NCBI GenBank assembly: GCA_016235895.1
Contig: JACRIB010000014.1
Coordinates: forward strand, 1 to 37,307
Direction of reading: 5' to 3'
Length of the DNA: 37,307 bases
Source of the DNA: Candidatus Peregrinibacteria bacterium
Lineage (GTDB): Bacteria; Patescibacteriota; Gracilibacteria; UBA1369; LOWO2-01-FULL-3
How positions within the stretch are numbered: position 1 is the stretch's first letter; each line of letters opens with the position of its first letter. Positions 18,648 to 33,513 of this stretch are shown piece by piece. Made by a program: the position numbers and the translations under genes. A model generated the notes under the pieces. The model was not told the origin of the DNA. It worked only from the letters and a program-made list of their open reading frames with translations, and ran no database searches.

Positions 18648-21600
18648 TTATTCAGAAAATCTGTTAAAAGTTTTGCGGTAATATTGATCGAGTGTGGCGA
18701 TATTGGTTTTTAAAATAATTTTTGAGGGGTTGTCGCCGTTGTTGGTTTTTATTACAAAATTTTGATTGTTGGTTGTTTTTCCGAGTAAGGCAAAGGGTAC
18801 ATTTGCAAAATGTTTTTCGAATTCGGCTTGGCGTTTGGGGTCGATGGTAACGACGAAGCGGGATTGGGATTCGGAGAAGAGTAGATGGTCGAGGCGTGTC
18901 GGCGGAAATTTGTTTTTTGTCGAAAAATTGGAGTTTAATAGGTTTGGGGCGTCCCGAGAATTCGAGTTAAAACCTGGAACTTTAGAGATGTCAATTTCCA
19001 TGCCCATCCGTCCTGCGATGGCTTTTTTGGCCAAAGTTATTCCTAGGCCACCAAATTGTGGGCTTAGTGCTGAGGAAATTAGGCGCTTCTCGACGGCGCT
19101 GCGGAAGGTGCGATAAAGTTTGATGGCGGATTTGGCGTCGACTTTTGGAACGGAGTTGCCGATGAAAGTCTCACCGGGGATAACTTTTGTGATAACTTTT
19201 GGCGCGTTCTCGGGAACGGATTTTGCCAAATCTTTTTGGTATTGAAAATATTCGCTCCCGCCCAGTTCGTCTTTAGTTTCTCCCAAAATATAAATTAAAT
19301 CGCCGGGAAATTTTGGATCGAGAGAAACGGCTAGGGTAAGGTCATCCAGCACGCCAAGTGAGGAAATTAAAAGTGTGGGGGAAACGGAAATTTTTACGGC
19401 TTTGCCTTGCGCGTCAAATCCTTTGAAGTCATTAAACATTGAATCTTTGCCGGAAATATATGGCGTGCCATAAGCAACTGCGTAGTCATAAACGGCTTCG
19501 CAAGCGGCTTTTAGCTGGCCTAATCTTTCCGGTTCATTCGAGCTGCACCAGCAGAAATTGTCCATCAAGGCCAGGTGATCAAGCGTGCCGCCGATGGCGA
19601 TCACATTGCGCACTGCCGTGTCGATGGCGCAAGCGGCCATGTGATAAGTGTCGATTTCGGAATAAATTGGATTCAAGCCCTGCGAACAAATTACACCGCG
19701 GGTGCTTTCCGGAAATGGCTTGGTGACTGAGGCAACGCCGTTTACGCGGCCGCGACCTTGCAGCGGTTTTATGATCGTGCCACCTTGTACGTTGTGGTCG
19801 TATTGAGTGCTGATGAATTCGTAGCTGCAGATGTTTGGGCGGGCGAGCACGTTGAGCAGAGTTTGAGTGAGGTCTGCGGGCTCTGGAAAATCCGGTTCCG
19901 GATTGCGTTTGTGATTTGGTAAATCTTCAATTCTTGTGTAAGTAGTTTTTAAAGATTTTCTTGGCAGACCTTCATGCAGAAAATCCATCGCCAGGTCCAT
20001 GATTTTTTCGTCATTAAATTTTACGACACATCTACCATCATCGGTAAATTCACCGATAACCGTCGATTCTACGTCGCGCTTGGCCATTAATTCTTCAAAT
20101 TCTGTCAGTTTTTCCGATGGAACGGCGAGGGTCATTCTTTCCTGTGATTCGCTGATCCAGATTTGCCAGGGCGAAAGGTTGGGATATTTCGTGGGAACTT
20201 TTTCGAGATTTACGAGGCATCCGCCGCATTCCTTAGCCATTTCTGGTACGGAACAGGAGATGCCGCCGGCGCCGTTATCGGTGATGCTATGGTAAAGTTC
20301 GCGATCACGAGCTTCTTTTACGATTGCGTCGGAGAATTTTTTCTGGGTAATCGGGTCGCCGATTTGTACGGCTGTTGCGGGACTTCCTGAGCTCAAAGCT
20401 TCCGAGGAAAATGTCGCGCCGTGAATTCCGTCCATGCCCACGCGTCCGCCGATTACTACGATTTTATCACCTTTTTCGGCTTTCTTTTCCCAACTGTTTT
20501 TGCCGTTAATTTTTCGCGGAATGAGTCCTATTGTTCCCACAAAAATCAGTGGTTTGCCCTTGTATCCATCATGAAAATAAACAAAACCTTGCGGGGTCGG
20601 GATGCCGCTGCAATTGCCGCCGGCGTTGACTCCTTCGATCACGCCTTCGAGAATTCTGTGAGGGGGGAGAGCGGCATTGGTGAGCTTGGCGTCGCGATAA
20701 ATAGGTTCCTTGTCAAAAGGGTTGCCAACACAAAAACCATATTTATTGATGATCGGTTTGGCACCTTTGCCAAAGCCGAGGCAGTCGCGATTTACGCCGA
20801 TGATTCCGGTGATCGCGCCGCCGAATGGATCGAGGGCGGAAGGGCTGTTGTGGGTTTCGGCTTTGTCGGTAATTATCCAGTTTTCATCGAAAATAATTCC
20901 GCCGGCATTGTCGGAGAAAACTGACATACAAAAGTCTCCTTTTGTAGGTTCAGGCTTAGCTCGGCCTGGCAGAGCCAGATCCTCGCTTTCGCCTTCGCGC
21001 TCGGACCGTGTCCTCGCTTTTGCTTTTCTAATATCGTTAGTCGCTTTCTTGATATAGCCTTTATATAACCCTTGCTCGTTTTGTAAAGCTCGCTCCTGCT
21101 CACGACCGGCTAAACCAGATCGTTCGCCGTCGCTGCGCACTCGCGCTGTGCGCTCGTTATCATCAATTTTTGCGGCGAAGATGGTATGCTTGCAATGTTC
21201 GGACCAGGTTTGAGCGAGAGATTCCAGTTCGATGTCGGTGGGTGGGCGATCTTCTTTTGCAAAATATTTTTTTATGACTTCAAGCGAATCTTTTTCCAGC
21301 GCTAGCGGTCCGCGACGTGTACCGTCTTTGTTTGGAATACCTTCTTTACCTAATTTTAATAATTCTTCTTCGGAAATACTTAAATCCACTTTGTCGACTT
21401 CCGGCTTGCTGCTGAGGTGAACGAGAGGGACGGTGGTGTCCATGCCGTTATCAGCGGCGAATTTCTCGTGACTCTTTATCGTAATGCGTTGGATTAAACT
21501 GTTGGCTAAATTGTCACCGATTTTTTCGACATCTTTTTCAGAGAGCTCGCCTTTAATAAAAATCAGCATCGAGCTATGCACGCTTTCTTCTGCGCTAAAT

Positions 21601-21920
21601 TTTAGTTTGAAAAAGTCTTCAATCGTTTCACGAGCTGTGGTGGCGATATTATCGGTCACGCCGGGCAGAAAGCCGATTTCCAGGGCGAAATTAAAGGAAA
21701 TTTCCTTTTGCGCTTCGTCAATTCCGTATTTTTGACTCACCGGATTTGAGAGCATTTCGGCGATTTCTTTGAGTTCTGATTTTTTGAAATCTTTGTTAAT
21801 GACGTAAACTTCGACAACAGTAGCGGAAGATATATTAAATCCACAAGACTGCAGCTTTTTGGCCATTACTTGAGATTTGCTGTCGTTAACCTTGGTGAAA
21901 ATTTCGATGCGATGCGCCAT
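18648..21920 (-). CDS. purL: Phosphoribosylformylglycinamidine synthase PurL with N-terminal PurS-like region; carries in-frame inserts
   Basis: LPGVTDN, QTWSEHCKH, KAETHNSPS, DGIHGATFSS, DNGAGG, SESQERM, QYDH, ISGKDS. Confidence 0.95.
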   Translation of the reverse strand: MAHRIEIFTKVNDSKSQVMAKKLQSCGFNISSATVVEVYVINKDFKKSELKEIAEMLSNPVSQKYGIDEAQKEISFNFALEIGFLPGVTDNIATTARETIEDFFKLKFSAEESVHSSMLIFIKGELSEKDVEKIGDNLANSLIQRITIKSHEKFAADNGMDTTVPLVHLSSKPEVDKVDLSISEEELLKLGKEGIPNKDGTRRGPLALEKDSLEVIKKYFAKEDRPPTDIELESLAQTWSEHCKHTIFAAKIDDNERTARVRSDGERSGLAGREQERALQNEQGLYKGYIKKATNDIRKAKARTRSEREGESEDLALPGRAKPEPTKGDFCMSVFSDNAGGIIFDENWIITDKAETHNSPSALDPFGGAITGIIGVNRDCLGFGKGAKPIINKYGFCVGNPFDKEPIYRDAKLTNAALPPHRILEGVIEGVNAGGNCSGIPTPQGFVYFHDGYKGKPLIFVGTIGLIPRKINGKNSWEKKAEKGDKIVVIGGRVGMDGIHGATFSSEALSSGSPATAVQIGDPITQKKFSDAIVKEARDRELYHSITDNGAGGISCSVPEMAKECGGCLVNLEKVPTKYPNLSPWQIWISESQERMTLAVPSEKLTEFEELMAKRDVESTVIGEFTDDGRCVVKFNDEKIMDLAMDFLHEGLPRKSLKTTYTRIEDLPNHKRNPEPDFPEPADLTQTLLNVLARPNICSYEFISTQYDHNVQGGTIIKPLQGRGRVNGVASVTKPFPESTRGVICSQGLNPIYSEIDTYHMAACAIDTAVRNVIAIGGTLDHLALMDNFCWCSSNEPERLGQLKAACEAVYDYAVAYGTPYISGKDSMFNDFKGFDAQGKAVKISVSPTLLISSLGVLDDLTLAVSLDPKFPGDLIYILGETKDELGGSEYFQYQKDLAKSVPENAPKVITKVIPGETFIGNSVPKVDAKSAIKLYRTFRSAVEKRLISSALSPQFGGLGITLAKKAIAGRMGMEIDISKVPGFNSNSRDAPNLLNSNFSTKNKFPPTRLDHLLFSESQSRFVVTIDPKRQAEFEKHFANVPFALLGKTTNNQNFVIKTNNGDNPSKIILKTNIATLDQYYRKTFNRFSE
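20939..21022 (-). mobile_element. In-frame structured mini-element copy A (78 nt) in purL
   Basis: Direct repeats CTTTTG at 20939-20944 and 21017-21022 (78 nt apart); shares CTGGCAGAGCCAGATCCTC with the galU copy; encodes ARTRSEREGESEDLALPGRAKPEPT. Confidence 0.85.
21074..21158 (-). mobile_element. In-frame structured mini-element copy B (78 nt) in purL
   Basis: Direct repeats GCTCGTT at 21074-21080 and 21152-21158; same hairpin layout and TACAAAA end as copies A and C; encodes RTARVRSDGERSGLAGREQERALQNE. Confidence 0.82.
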
Positions 21921-22575: not shown

Positions 22576-24204
22576 CTATTTCTTGAAATCTTTCATGTCA
22601 CTGTTTGAGATGGAAGTTTTCGCTCCATCCTCATTTTTGCCTGTGGAACTGGCGATGATGGTATAGGACATGTCTGATTCGAAGGAAATTAGCGCGTCGG
22701 ATTTTAGTGTTATTTGGCCGTCTTTGACTTCTACCGTGGCATTATTGGATGGAGTTTCACCACCGGCGTTTTTAATGGTGAAAGTATTGCCGCTGCGATT
22801 CAATTTATAATTTATTTCGTCCAAACAAGGATTTATGCTATTATTGCCGTAATTTTTGCACATGGTAGCGGAAACTTCGTAGCTGTCGGCGCCAACATCT
22901 TTAAAGGTGACATTAAATTTGCTGCCCTGCGTGGTCGCGTCTTTGGCCGGAGCGGTGATTTCCGGCTGATTTAACGGCTTTGGAATTGGTACGGTGATTT
23001 TTTTGGCTATGTAGCTGTCGTCTTCGAAAGTGATTTTTAAAAGATAGTCTTTGGATGGAAGTTTGAGTTCGTCATTGGTAAGGGTGTCGCTGCAGCGATG
23101 AGGAAAACGCGGGCGGTCACACATTGAACCGGTTTGGCTTTTGGGGTCGGTGTCCTTGAGATCTGTAAGGTACATTAATCTTGGTTGTAGAGCTGGCGGA
23201 AGGTCTACGGTAAGCGGCATTTCGATGGCGTATTTTTTGTTTTCTTTCAACTTCAGATCCGGCCTTTCCAAGTAAACGTCAAATTCAAAAGTATTGCCTT
23301 CCGGGTAACTGGTGTTGGTGCCGTTGGCGCTGGTCAATAAAATTTGATCGAGTTGAAAATTTGCTTTGGCGTCTTTTAGCACTAATGCATCAGGTTTGTA
23401 GAAAGTGTAAGATTGCTGTTCTTGTTCGTAAAAAGCTTTTTTATCCGATGAGTAATAGTAGTCTTCGCCATTATCTTTTATCGCTTTCATTCGATAGAGC
23501 ATTTCTGCTACTTCTTTGCGGGACATGGAGTCGTTTGGCAGAAATTCGTAGTAGTAAGGGCCTTTTTCTTCCGCTTTGGAAATATCAATGTGTTTTGTGC
23601 CAACGGTGTTGGTTTTCAGCGCATATTCCAGATATTTGTAGAACCAAAGTTTCGAATCTTGAGTATCTGCAGGCATGCCTTCTATGCCTTGAAATTTCCA
23701 TTTTTTTTCGGGAATGTCATTATTTGTAAACTCTATTGAGGCCATTTTTATGGCTTCGGCACGTTTGACACAAACGTCGGGGCGGAATTTTCCGTCTTTG
23801 TAACCTTCGATGGTTTTGTGCTCGCGGGCGGTGCGGATGTAGGGCGCATACCACTCGGAATCGGGTGTGTCCGGAAATAATTCAGCGGTGGATTTGCCGG
23901 AGTCTACTGAAAGAGTTTTAAAAAGCATTTTCAGAAACTCGGCACGATTTACGCATTTGTCAGGTTTAAACGTGCCATCTTCGTAGCCGTTGATGACCTG
24001 ATTTTGTTGCATCCAGAGGATGGAATTTTGGTAGTTGGTTTGATCGTTGACATCTGAAAAATCGGCAAAAGCCGGGAAAATTTGCGAGAAAATTAGAACA
24101 ACTGCAACTGCGAGTGGAGCAAGAAATTTTGAGGAAAATTTCATAGAACTGTCAAAATATTTACCCTCGTTGGCTTTATGAATTAATCTGTTTTCTGTAA
24201 ACAT
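22576..24204 (-). CDS. SLH-domain surface protein
   Basis: Signal peptide from alternative start 24144 (MKFSS...AFA), SLH repeats (INGYEDGTFKPDKCVNRAE; IEGYKDGKFRP), beta-rich C-terminus. Confidence 0.85.
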   Translation of the reverse strand: MFTENRLIHKANEGKYFDSSMKFSSKFLAPLAVAVVLIFSQIFPAFADFSDVNDQTNYQNSILWMQQNQVINGYEDGTFKPDKCVNRAEFLKMLFKTLSVDSGKSTAELFPDTPDSEWYAPYIRTAREHKTIEGYKDGKFRPDVCVKRAEAIKMASIEFTNNDIPEKKWKFQGIEGMPADTQDSKLWFYKYLEYALKTNTVGTKHIDISKAEEKGPYYYEFLPNDSMSRKEVAEMLYRMKAIKDNGEDYYYSSDKKAFYEQEQQSYTFYKPDALVLKDAKANFQLDQILLTSANGTNTSYPEGNTFEFDVYLERPDLKLKENKKYAIEMPLTVDLPPALQPRLMYLTDLKDTDPKSQTGSMCDRPRFPHRCSDTLTNDELKLPSKDYLLKITFEDDSYIAKKITVPIPKPLNQPEITAPAKDATTQGSKFNVTFKDVGADSYEVSATMCKNYGNNSINPCLDEINYKLNRSGNTFTIKNAGGETPSNNATVEVKDGQITLKSDALISFESDMSYTIIASSTGKNEDGAKTSISNSDMKDFKK

Positions 24205-30827: not shown

Positions 30828-30888
30828 AAAGTGTGCGCGCGCAGACTTTTTTGGTCATCTTGTGGCTCAAATAAGCCATTTTGTATTT
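30828..30888. repeat. 61-bp double-hairpin direct repeat, left copy
   Basis: AAAGTGTGCGCGCGCAGACTTT...TGGCTCAAATAAGCCATTTTGTATTT; 45/61 ungapped identity by hand count to 31349-31409. Confidence 0.75.
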
Positions 30889-30945: not shown

Positions 30946-31350
30946 ATGTCCGATAAGAATTCTACAATTCATTTCGTAATAACAGGAGGGACGATAGATT
31001 CTTTTTATGATGGCAGTAAAGATACCGCTGTAACTAACGAACATTCCATTGAGACCAGCAAACATAAAAAAATTCTCGTGACGCATGGGACGTATACGAT
31101 GTCTGATACCGCCAGATTTTTGAAAGCAAATTTGAAAAGAAAGGATCAGGTGATTATTTTGACCGGATCAATGATTCCGATTAACGGCTTTTCGCCTTCT
31201 GATGGACCTTTTAGTCTGGGCTATGCAATCGCTCAATTGGAACATTTGAAGCCGGGAATTTATGTCTGCGTGAATGGACGAGTTTTTTCGCCGGAAGAAG
31301 TGGTTAAAGTTATAGGTGAGGGCAGATTTTCTTCAATTTTTGAAAGATAA
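30946..31350 (+). CDS. Asparaginase N-terminal-domain-like protein, apparently internally deleted
   Basis: TGGTID, THGTYTM, ILTGSMIP, SDGPFSLG, GIYVCVNG; the segment between GGT and HGT motifs is unusually short. Confidence 0.75.
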   Translation: MSDKNSTIHFVITGGTIDSFYDGSKDTAVTNEHSIETSKHKKILVTHGTYTMSDTARFLKANLKRKDQVIILTGSMIPINGFSPSDGPFSLGYAIAQLEHLKPGIYVCVNGRVFSPEEVVKVIGEGRFSSIFER

Positions 31351-31409
31351 AGTCTGCCCGGGCAGACTTTTAGCGCCAATAAATGGTTCAAGTAAGCCAT
31401 CTTGTGTTT
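31349..31409. repeat. 61-bp double-hairpin direct repeat, right copy (may double as bidirectional terminator)
   Basis: Perfect 22-bp palindrome AAAGTCTGCCC|GGGCAGACTTT, then ATGGTTCAAGTAAGCCAT hairpin; fills the gap between convergent genes. Confidence 0.75.
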
Positions 31410-32559: not shown

Positions 32560-33513
32560 TTATTTTTTTATACTTTTCAAAAACCTCAAATATTCGCCGC
32601 TTAATTCTTTATGCTTTAGGGCGAAGTGCGTGACGGCTTTGAGGTAGCCGAGTTTGTCGCCGGTGTCGAAGCGGGCGCCGCTGATTTCGTAGCCGTAAAT
32701 GGGGGAGTGTTTGATGAATTTGCGCATGCCGTCGATGAGCCTAATTTCTTTATTTTGTAAGCTCGGCTGCGTTCGGACTGGCAGAGCCAGATCCTCACTT
32801 TGCCTGCGCCCTCGGCCTGTGGCCTCGGTTTGTAAGCTCACTGTTTTTTCCAGGTCTTTCAATAGCTCCGGCGTGACGATGTATTTGCCGATAATGGCGA
32901 GGTTGGAGGGGGCCTTTGAGGGCTTTGGTTTTTCAACCAGGCTTTTGATTTTGTGGAGTTGATGAATGTGGTTTTTGGCTTTTTCTTGTTCACATTCTAC
33001 AATGCCATATTTTTCCGAATCCTTTTTGCCGATTTTGTGGAGGCCGATGATGGGTGAGCCGAGTTTTTCATATTCTTTTATTAACTGGGCGATGGCGGGA
33101 GTTTTGCTGTCATAAATATCGTCACCGAAGAGGACGGCAAAGGGTTCGTTCTTCACAAATTCTTTGGCGCAGAGGATGGCGTGGCCGTCGCCAAGCGGTT
33201 TAGGCTGTCTGACGTAGCTGAATTTGGCCATCTTTTCAATTTTTTCTAGTTCGCGGATAGCTTTTTGTTTGCCGTTTTTTTCGAGGTGCGAAATTAATTT
33301 TGGCGAAATATCAAAATAATCTTCGATGGATTGTTTGCCTTCGGCGGTGATAATGATGATCTCTGTAATTCCGCTTGCTACAGCCTCTTCAACGAGGTAT
33401 TGAATGCAGGGTTTGTCAACGATCGGCAGCATTTCCTTGGGCTGGGATTTTGTGGCGGGAAGAAAACGAGTGCCGAGTCCGGCGGCGGGAATAATAGCTT
33501 TGCGGATTTTCAT
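32560..33513 (-). CDS. galU: UTP--glucose-1-phosphate uridylyltransferase with in-frame insert
   Basis: IPAAGLGTRFLPATK..PKEMLP, RQ..PLGDGHA, VEKP, RFDTG.KLGY. Confidence 0.95.
   Translation of the reverse strand: MKIRKAIIPAAGLGTRFLPATKSQPKEMLPIVDKPCIQYLVEEAVASGITEIIIITAEGKQSIEDYFDISPKLISHLEKNGKQKAIRELEKIEKMAKFSYVRQPKPLGDGHAILCAKEFVKNEPFAVLFGDDIYDSKTPAIAQLIKEYEKLGSPIIGLHKIGKKDSEKYGIVECEQEKAKNHIHQLHKIKSLVEKPKPSKAPSNLAIIGKYIVTPELLKDLEKTVSLQTEATGRGRRQSEDLALPVRTQPSLQNKEIRLIDGMRKFIKHSPIYGYEISGARFDTGDKLGYLKAVTHFALKHKELSGEYLRFLKSIKK
32754..32839 (-). mobile_element. In-frame structured mini-element copy C (75 nt) in galU
   Basis: 11-bp direct repeats TTTGTAAGCTC at 32754-32764 and 32829-32839; homologous to the purL copies; encodes SLQ-TEATGRGRRQSEDLALPVRTQP-SLQ. 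Confidence 0.88.

Follow-up and report, generated by a model that had tools for sequence, protein, structure and literature searches.

In a contig of 37,307 nt from a Candidatus Peregrinibacteria bacterium (JACRIB010000014.1 of assembly GCA_016235895.1, hereafter the window), three copies of a short structured, GC-rich repeat of about 75 nt were found inserted in genes, two of them in a purL-like gene (copies A and B) and one in a galU-like gene (copy C). Given its fold, its insertion sites and its orientation in this genome and in those of relatives, we consider the repeat to be, on balance, probably a non-autonomous mobile, or recently mobile, element that is recognised as a folded single strand. 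The purL-like gene, coding for FGAM synthase, is one open frame of 1090 codons (18648-21920, minus strand) that stays open through copies A and B and is matched by FGAM synthases of the PDB on either side of the inserts. An earlier examination of the window from its letters (the sequence-only reading) had proposed a covarying structured element at 20945-21158, a range that consists of copies A and B plus the 63 native purL bases separating them, all inside purL. The window contains a 19-mer of the second hairpin two times, compared to an expectation of 0; hence the copies are not due to chance.

In order to define the family, the genome of this groundwater bacterium (1.14 Mb, 120 contigs) was searched by iterative nhmmer starting from the three copies, which gave 26 matches, 23 of them near full length and 3 partial. 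A covariance model (R1) built from 20 of the genome's own copies gave 31 matches in the same genome. Head-to-tail tandems of the element are frequent, both here and in relatives.

Each copy starts at its 5' end with GCGAG and finishes at its 3' end with an unpaired tail, TTATAAA. Hairpin 1 is made of 2 bp, a GA/GA loop, 4 bp and a 3-nt loop and abuts hairpin 2, a long irregular structure of four short helices capped by a 3-nt loop; between these helices lie a GCA/GA loop, an AA/GAA-type loop, a GA/GA loop and one bulged T, which is found in 77 of 86 copies. The six hairpins quoted in the sequence-only reading are present as written on the minus strand, and hairpin 2 reaches further out than was seen at that time, with two more helices and two more GA-type loops. 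The closure by GA/GA that had been described for three copies is kept throughout the family: the four positions are nearly invariant in hairpin 1 (G 82/84, A 83/84, G 82/85 and A 82/85) and the GA positions of the outer loop are conserved in 87/89, 89/89, 77/86 and 88/88 copies. It is known from nuclear magnetic resonance work that 5'-CGAG-3' contexts favour sheared G.A pairs. With RNA parameters, folding is predicted to favour the strand bearing these loops (hereafter the G.A strand) over its complement in 73 of 78 copies (-28.0 versus -23.9 kcal/mol); with DNA parameters the same holds for 72 of 78, with an average difference of 1.6 kcal/mol between the strands. For copy A the predicted values are -30.7 kcal/mol and -22.8 kcal/mol for the complement; the apical helix of copy B contains two G.T wobbles.

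The pairing is supported by covariation. RNAalifold run on 20 copies of the own genome returned 18 pairs, 11 of which show compensatory changes. A larger set of 96 copies (89 distinct) from about 20 genomes was then assembled. In this alignment, which was fitted to the model and hence favours the structure, 96.1% of the pairing cells of the 89 distinct copies are paired compared to 75.6% in shuffles, double changes are seen at 19 of 21 pairs (317 double-change cells versus 72.5 in shuffles) and the covariation score is 0.483, compared to 0.137 in shuffles, 0 out of 500 of which reach 0.483, and to 0.053 or less when the partners are slid. In the grpE-site copy of one relative, the whole apical helix has been swapped for an unrelated sequence that still pairs. 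The covarying structure claimed from three copies is thus borne out in the larger alignment. Between orthologous copies, 2 compensatory changes were counted versus 4 disruptive ones; these counts are not decisive but suggest that the covariation reflects a constraint on spreading copies and not upkeep after landing. Covariation is found mainly between sub-families, a pattern that would fit a fold needed for spread, i.e. a recognition signal read on one strand.

Two known structures were compared with this fold and rejected. Contrary to the kink-turn-like site suggested by the sequence-only reading, the GA/GA loops are symmetric 2x2, or 3x2/2x3, within one helix, without any adjoining 3-nt bulge, and the sole bulge is the single T located four pairs from a GA/GA loop. 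A Rfam scan of positions 20700-21400 with E up to 10, also suggested at that time, displayed only two chance small nucleolar RNA rows and nothing relevant. An intrinsic terminator was rejected as well, the tail TTATAAA being followed by A-rich flanks and not by a T run.

Comparison with related genomes reveals both filled and empty sites. Of 29 related purL genes, 28 are without both inserts. The remaining one (G033, L052) carries an 11-residue insert exactly at site B, in a genome where no copy is detected by the model; this insert may be a worn-down remnant. With respect to two genomes of the same genus, site B of purL corresponds to a 78-nt insert and site A to a 78-nt insert beside a 6-nt loss, and the sites in the genes for glucose-6-phosphate dehydrogenase (G6PD) and Pgl show inserts of 72 and 78 nt. 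At all four junctions the insert spans from GCGAG to the tail, with some ambiguity at both purL sites due to a likeness of 4-6 nt between the target and the element ends. No target duplication was observed at the six sites looked at, and there are no terminal inverted repeats, the GCGAG and TTATAAA ends not being inverse to each other. Some sites are filled in several species by different sub-family variants, and at others, one of two near-identical relatives has a copy where the other has a clean empty site without scar. The galU loop varies within the genus, two relatives holding decayed remnants there, and is too variable for the junction to be defined. Aside from the element itself, a different small GC-rich hairpin repeat (arms CCTGCC / GGCAGG) is nested in one element copy at the grpE site of G001 (L288) and is also present alone at an intergenic site of the same genome (L291) that is filled by the element in other species.

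The position of the copies relative to genes was examined in a genome that is about 90% coding. Among the 31 own matches, 15 lie inside genes, all in sense, and 12 of these are deep. From reading of their translations, we take the hosts to be purL (twice), galU, a fumarase/aspartase-type lyase, phosphoglucomutase, grpE, a Mur ligase, Pgl, G6PD and uvrA; further hosts in relatives are transketolase (twice), carA, grpE, argS and hflX, and grpE in a relative is the only such host name that was checked with Pfam. Copies deep in genes amount to 22 in sense versus 1 doubtful copy in antisense, which lies 28 codons into an open reading frame whose TTG start is uncertain and which has no match in Pfam. 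The inserts are read in all three sense frames, so that there is no single conserved peptide, and the TAA of the tail is altered wherever the frame would otherwise stop. The sense peptides are hydrophilic (mean hydropathy from -0.7 to -1.0), with 24-34% charged residues, and are rich in Ala, Arg, Ser and Glu, compared to antisense peptides of hydropathy -0.2 to +0.25 that are richer in Leu, Phe, Cys and Val. Stop codons were rejected as the cause of the sense-only orientation in genes, given that, out of 78 copies, 71 and 74 are free of stops in two of the antisense frames, compared to only 30-43 in the sense frames. Between genes the profile is different: 25 copies have the same sense as both of their neighbours and 13 run antisense to both (Fisher p = 0.01 against the deep copies). 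Such intergenic copies occupy the very short spacers of operons: the following gene starts 5-13 nt past the tail, and the upstream gene may end within the element. Genes beside dense clusters are ordinary ones (ArgRS, HflX, SSB, guanylate kinase). The sequence-only reading had placed the G.A pairs of all three copies on the mRNA strand; this is correct inside genes and does not extend to the copies between genes.

Such a distribution is relevant to the possibility that the fold acts in RNA, as a protein-binding or stability motif, including a kink-turn-like site, under selection in the transcripts containing it. Proteins commonly bind RNA at GA/GA loops, and a role of this kind would agree with the sense orientation of the deep copies (22 versus 1), with the higher stability of the G.A strand as RNA (73 of 78 copies) and with the two compensatory changes between orthologous copies. 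However, the latter are outnumbered by the four disruptive ones, the 13 intergenic copies antisense to both neighbours would hardly be expected, especially as 9 of the 10 informative ones obey the strand asymmetry described below, and neither a kink-turn bulge nor any Rfam match was found. Moreover, the host genes are functionally unrelated and close relatives are without the inserts. We thus regard selection of the fold in RNA as quite unlikely. The recognition signal in single-stranded DNA or RNA put forward by the sequence-only reading is therefore retained as far as a one-strand fold covarying between sub-families is concerned and is not retained as an mRNA signal, given the antisense intergenic copies.

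The orientation of the element follows the G/C asymmetry of the strands and not transcription. In the own genome the third-codon-position GC skew has a median of |0.29| per contig, and its sign is the same in genes of both strands, meaning that the skew belongs to the strand and does not stem from codon use; the genes themselves are split 451 kb versus 435 kb between strands. Of the 29 informative copies of the own genome, 26 have the G.A strand on the C-rich strand (p = 1.5e-5), as do 29 of 35 in relatives, for a total of 55 versus 9; included in these figures are 9 of the 10 informative copies that are antisense to both neighbours. Of the two options named in the sequence-only reading, transcription or replication strand, orientation matches the strand asymmetry, and transcription is not followed between genes. 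Along long contigs the copies are co-oriented (for example 8/8, 5/5 and 4/4). Two polarity exceptions are found on one G005 contig, beside an island with a serine recombinase, PIN and Fic. An origin at the orientation switch on a G005 contig was considered and rejected since the skew does not switch there; similarly, dnaA was rejected as an origin marker in G004, having no nearby skew switch.

Furthermore, the asymmetry extends over very long distances. One strand is C-rich and A-rich throughout in a 591 kb contig of the same genus (G004:C6), and so is one strand of a complete 998 kb genome of the same family (G012:C1) in each of the 20 windows sampled, where the third-position GC skew ranges from -0.44 to -0.86 except for one value calculated from 156 bases. 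No skew switch that would mark an origin or a terminus was seen in either G012:C1 or G004:C6. A similar strand disparity has been reported for a Microgenomates genome, according to passages of PMC7143001. Given such a disparity along the chromosome of a complete relative and the co-orientation on long contigs, the copies could be polar landmarks selected by the host on a one-way asymmetric chromosome, or else a protein module selected for its peptide. Both versions appear highly improbable: the density is only about 1 copy per 40 kb, the same asymmetry exists in many relatives devoid of copies (e.g. G012), turnover of the copy set between relatives is already partly seen, and the use of three frames with no conserved peptide does not suit a module.

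Taken together, the asymmetric ends, subterminal hairpins, extrahelical base, absence of duplication, seamless sites, tandems and polarity suggest that the element moves at the replication fork in the form of a folded single strand. According to the reading as a mobile element, it would spread as a folded single DNA strand, with an enzyme cutting it out and pasting it in seamlessly at the fork, in the manner of IS200/IS605 and repetitive extragenic palindrome (REP) elements, and the GA-closed hairpins would serve as the recognition signal. Many insertions would land in genes because the genome is about 90% coding; those that survive there are sense, in frame and stop-free and are presumably translated as hydrophilic loops that separate conserved blocks in purL, galU and other housekeeping genes.

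IS200/IS605 elements possess subterminal hairpins and undergo precise one-strand excision coupled to the fork, as set out in sections of PMC5027513 and PMC6006769. The likeness to these elements and to REPs with their REP-associated tyrosine transposases (RAYT), as far as those sections describe them, includes subterminal imperfect hairpins, one with an extrahelical base, the absence of terminal inverted repeats and target duplication, filled and empty sites that differ seamlessly, and an orientation tied to strand asymmetry. In contrast, many copies here are intragenic, the G.A strand is on the C-rich strand, and there is no conserved 5' target or GTAG/CGTC-type tag in 23 left flanks. The search for a mover also sets the two apart, and its results, with those of the following paragraph, weigh against the mechanism proposed. 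The Y1 transposase (PF01797) was not found in the five high-copy genomes G000 (88% complete), G005, G010 (83% complete), G036 and G054, and its occurrence in 5 of 23 element-bearing versus 9 of 38 element-free genomes shows no association. The TnpB-type domain PF07282 is present in 3 of 61 genomes, none of them high-copy, and no conserved base or motif was observed 5' of the element in the left flanks of 23 copies. With no Y1 transposase or TnpB found in the high-copy genomes and no left-flank target, membership of the IS200/IS605-REP family fails. Hence, of the HUH-like hairpin suggested by the sequence-only reading, what stands is the absence of terminal inverted repeats and target duplication, the subterminal hairpins and the polarity, and what does not is the enzyme, not found in the high-copy genomes; if the usual skew rule holds, the G.A strand would also be on the other template. 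Reverse transcriptase (RVT_1) shows no association either, being found in 9 of 23 element-bearing and 15 of 38 element-free genomes; none of the three domains searched for gave a candidate mover.

The usual rule is that the G-rich strand is the leading strand and thus the lagging-strand template. If it applies here, the G.A strand lies on the leading-strand template, opposite to the active strand of IS608. Moreover, marker genes disagree on which strand is leading. The 23S rRNA genes (G004 and G000) and dnaA (G004) are on the G-rich strand, and the ribosomal-protein and ATP-synthase operons of G000 are on the C-rich strand, in contigs with genes all on one strand, the skew of which may reflect codon usage; in G036, rpsM is on the plus strand of a contig whose plus strand is C-rich 65 kb away. 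Wobble counts, 24 G.U versus 14 A.C, carry no strand signal. In addition, gene calls come from a three-periodic Markov gene finder built here and trained on the long open reading frames of the own genome, tandem copies and related genomes make for non-independent counts, and the mobility, mechanism and translation proposed for the inserts are read from DNA sequence.

The template question is also central to a different account of the polarity, in which the element lands in either orientation and hairpin slippage subsequently removes the copies whose G.A strand, the more stable one, falls on the single-stranded template for lagging-strand synthesis. A leading-template G.A strand, as given by the usual rule, suits such differential survival at least as well as it does an IS608-like mechanism, and so do the higher stability of the G.A strand as DNA (72 of 78 copies), the partial copies that are without exactly one hairpin (C20, C56, C1 and C78) and the scar-free empty sites in close kin; Trinh and Sinden (1991) reportedly observed orientation-dependent deletion of asymmetric palindromes in E. 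coli. Nevertheless, the predicted DNA stability difference of 1.6 kcal/mol is small, the asymmetric ends, tandems and conserved fold are left unexplained, and neither the skew nor the marker genes settle the leading strand in this lineage, so that we consider differential survival unlikely as the explanation.

Alternatively, a transcript of the G.A strand could be reverse-transcribed at the fork and then joined in. An RNA copy of this kind would account for the asymmetric ends, the lack of target duplication and the A-rich tail, the sense strand is the structured one, and short reverse-transcriptase-like genes exist in the genus. Yet reverse transcriptase is unlinked to the element, as the above counts indicate, none was found in high-copy G010 and G054, and the stretch scanned with Rfam (20700-21400) gave no group II intron match. 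Movement through an RNA copy is hence judged very unlikely. With regard to the reverse-transcriptase-like frames themselves (about 200-260 codons), one is located at G000:C87:2443-2898 with counterparts in G001, G003, G004, G036 and G013; they match the second half of RVT_1 only and are conserved across the genus.

Returning to the element as a strand-specific mobile repeat, a bolder version, which we put forward tentatively and with more doubt than belief, is that of a new kind of element in which an enzyme without relation to the known HUH, DDE and reverse-transcriptase mobilisers would recognise the purine-zippered hairpins, on a one-way asymmetric chromosome, with in-frame landing that would keep adding loops to core enzymes.

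Other families of small repeats were compared as well. Classical miniature inverted-repeat transposable elements are likewise small, non-autonomous, multi-copy and sometimes intragenic, but their defining terminal inverted repeats and target-site duplications are both absent here. Mycobacterial interspersed repetitive units (MIRU) also resemble the intergenic copies, which fill tiny operon spacers, may contain the end of the upstream gene and are followed by a start codon after 5-13 nt; to our knowledge, however, MIRUs have neither a covarying GA-loop fold nor insertions deep in genes. By description, and not by sequence, the nearest known thing appears to be the Rickettsia palindromic element. 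These elements are inserted in frame and, like the present ones, are short structured multi-copy repeats of a small genome with an unknown mover (excerpts of PMC10969869), about half of the copies being in frame in unrelated housekeeping genes, between conserved blocks, as far as those excerpts go. The differences lie in length (about 75 bp here versus about 150 bp in the same excerpts of PMC10969869) and phylum, in the use of three frames here versus one conserved peptide per family in Rickettsia, and in the GA-loop hairpins, unpaired A/T tail and marked strand polarity of the present element.

In order to delimit the family, 61 related genomes were searched with the covariance model. The element is present in 23 of them, with 1 to 35 matches each, and is distributed patchily across genera and several families of one order, while 0 of 150 other genomes sampled across the phylum match the model. 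In a loose pattern scan of public contigs, most matches of which are chance ones in GC-rich genomes, 24 of the 119 loci listed pass the covariance model at high score; among the matches listed, all high-scoring loci are in records titled Candidatus Peribacteria, Peregrinibacteria or Patescibacteria and 0 of 13 viral loci pass. Three public sequence runs, all of them DNA contigs from a single study, yielded fragments and no joints. Within the genomes sampled, the family is thus confined to one order of Peregrinibacteria/Peribacteria, in the Candidate Phyla Radiation. A literature search, covering main texts, gave no report that describes repeats of this kind in Candidate Phyla Radiation genomes, and they are not mentioned in the passages considered of the Peribacteria genome paper (PMC4736985). 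In one relative, G010, the purL frame (contig C65, L060) reaches 1301 codons, and four same-strand element copies are seen on this contig at sites other than those of the window.

The coordinates of the window copies and their parts are given in Table 1. The native stretch between the two purL inserts and the host of copy C are included; the name galU for the latter is one that we presume from its translation. Copy C is preceded by a solitary 14-nt tail-like remnant.

Table 1. Positions in the window of the three element copies, their parts and the adjoining host sequence.
Feature	Positions	Strand	Description
Copy A	20941-21017	(-)	77 nt, in-frame sense insertion in purL; nhmmer and covariance model, 64.6 bits
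Copy A, hairpin 1	~21017-20999	(-)	
Copy A, hairpin 2	~20994-20952	(-)	
Copy A, A/T-rich tail	20951-20941	(-)	
Native purL between inserts	21018-21080	(-)	Encodes conserved stretch starting GLYKGYIKK; aligns with all 29 related PurL
Copy B	21081-21156	(-)	76 nt, in-frame sense insertion in purL; nhmmer and covariance model, 72.5 bits
Copy B, hairpin 1	~21156-21140	(-)	
Copy B, hairpin 2	~21133-21092	(-)	
Copy B, tail	21091-21081	(-)	
galU-like gene	32563-33513	(-)	317 codons, host of copy C
Copy C	32754-32828	(-)	75 nt, in-frame sense insertion in galU-like gene; nhmmer and covariance model, 84.4 bits

Three other repeats were observed in the window. At 2618-2725, inside a predicted minus-strand gene (1971-2978), there are three tandem 36-nt units, two of them identical and each with a GC-rich inverted repeat, which may represent a further structured repeat within genes. 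Two intergenic spots, 30828-30888 and 31349-31409, share a 61-nt repeat (74% alike) that displays a terminator-like hairpin followed by a T run plus a second small palindrome. Finally, an 86-nt stretch is present in four copies (63-72% alike) in two genes, within 2481-2842 and 23740-24008, and has the appearance of a protein domain common to both genes rather than of a mobile repeat.

For the organisms concerned, these results first have a practical consequence, as the inserts inflate, and may split, the gene calls of these genomes. The polarity of the element provides a handle on replication in a lineage with one strand C-rich along the whole chromosome. The 89 distinct copies, with their swapping helices and fixed GA loops, also represent a clean natural data set for recognition of a folded single strand. 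Finally, the family is a second, unrelated case of in-frame palindromic repeats, this time in free-ranging ultra-small bacteria, of what has so far been treated as an oddity of Rickettsia, which suggests that such a route of protein change recurs in reduced genomes.

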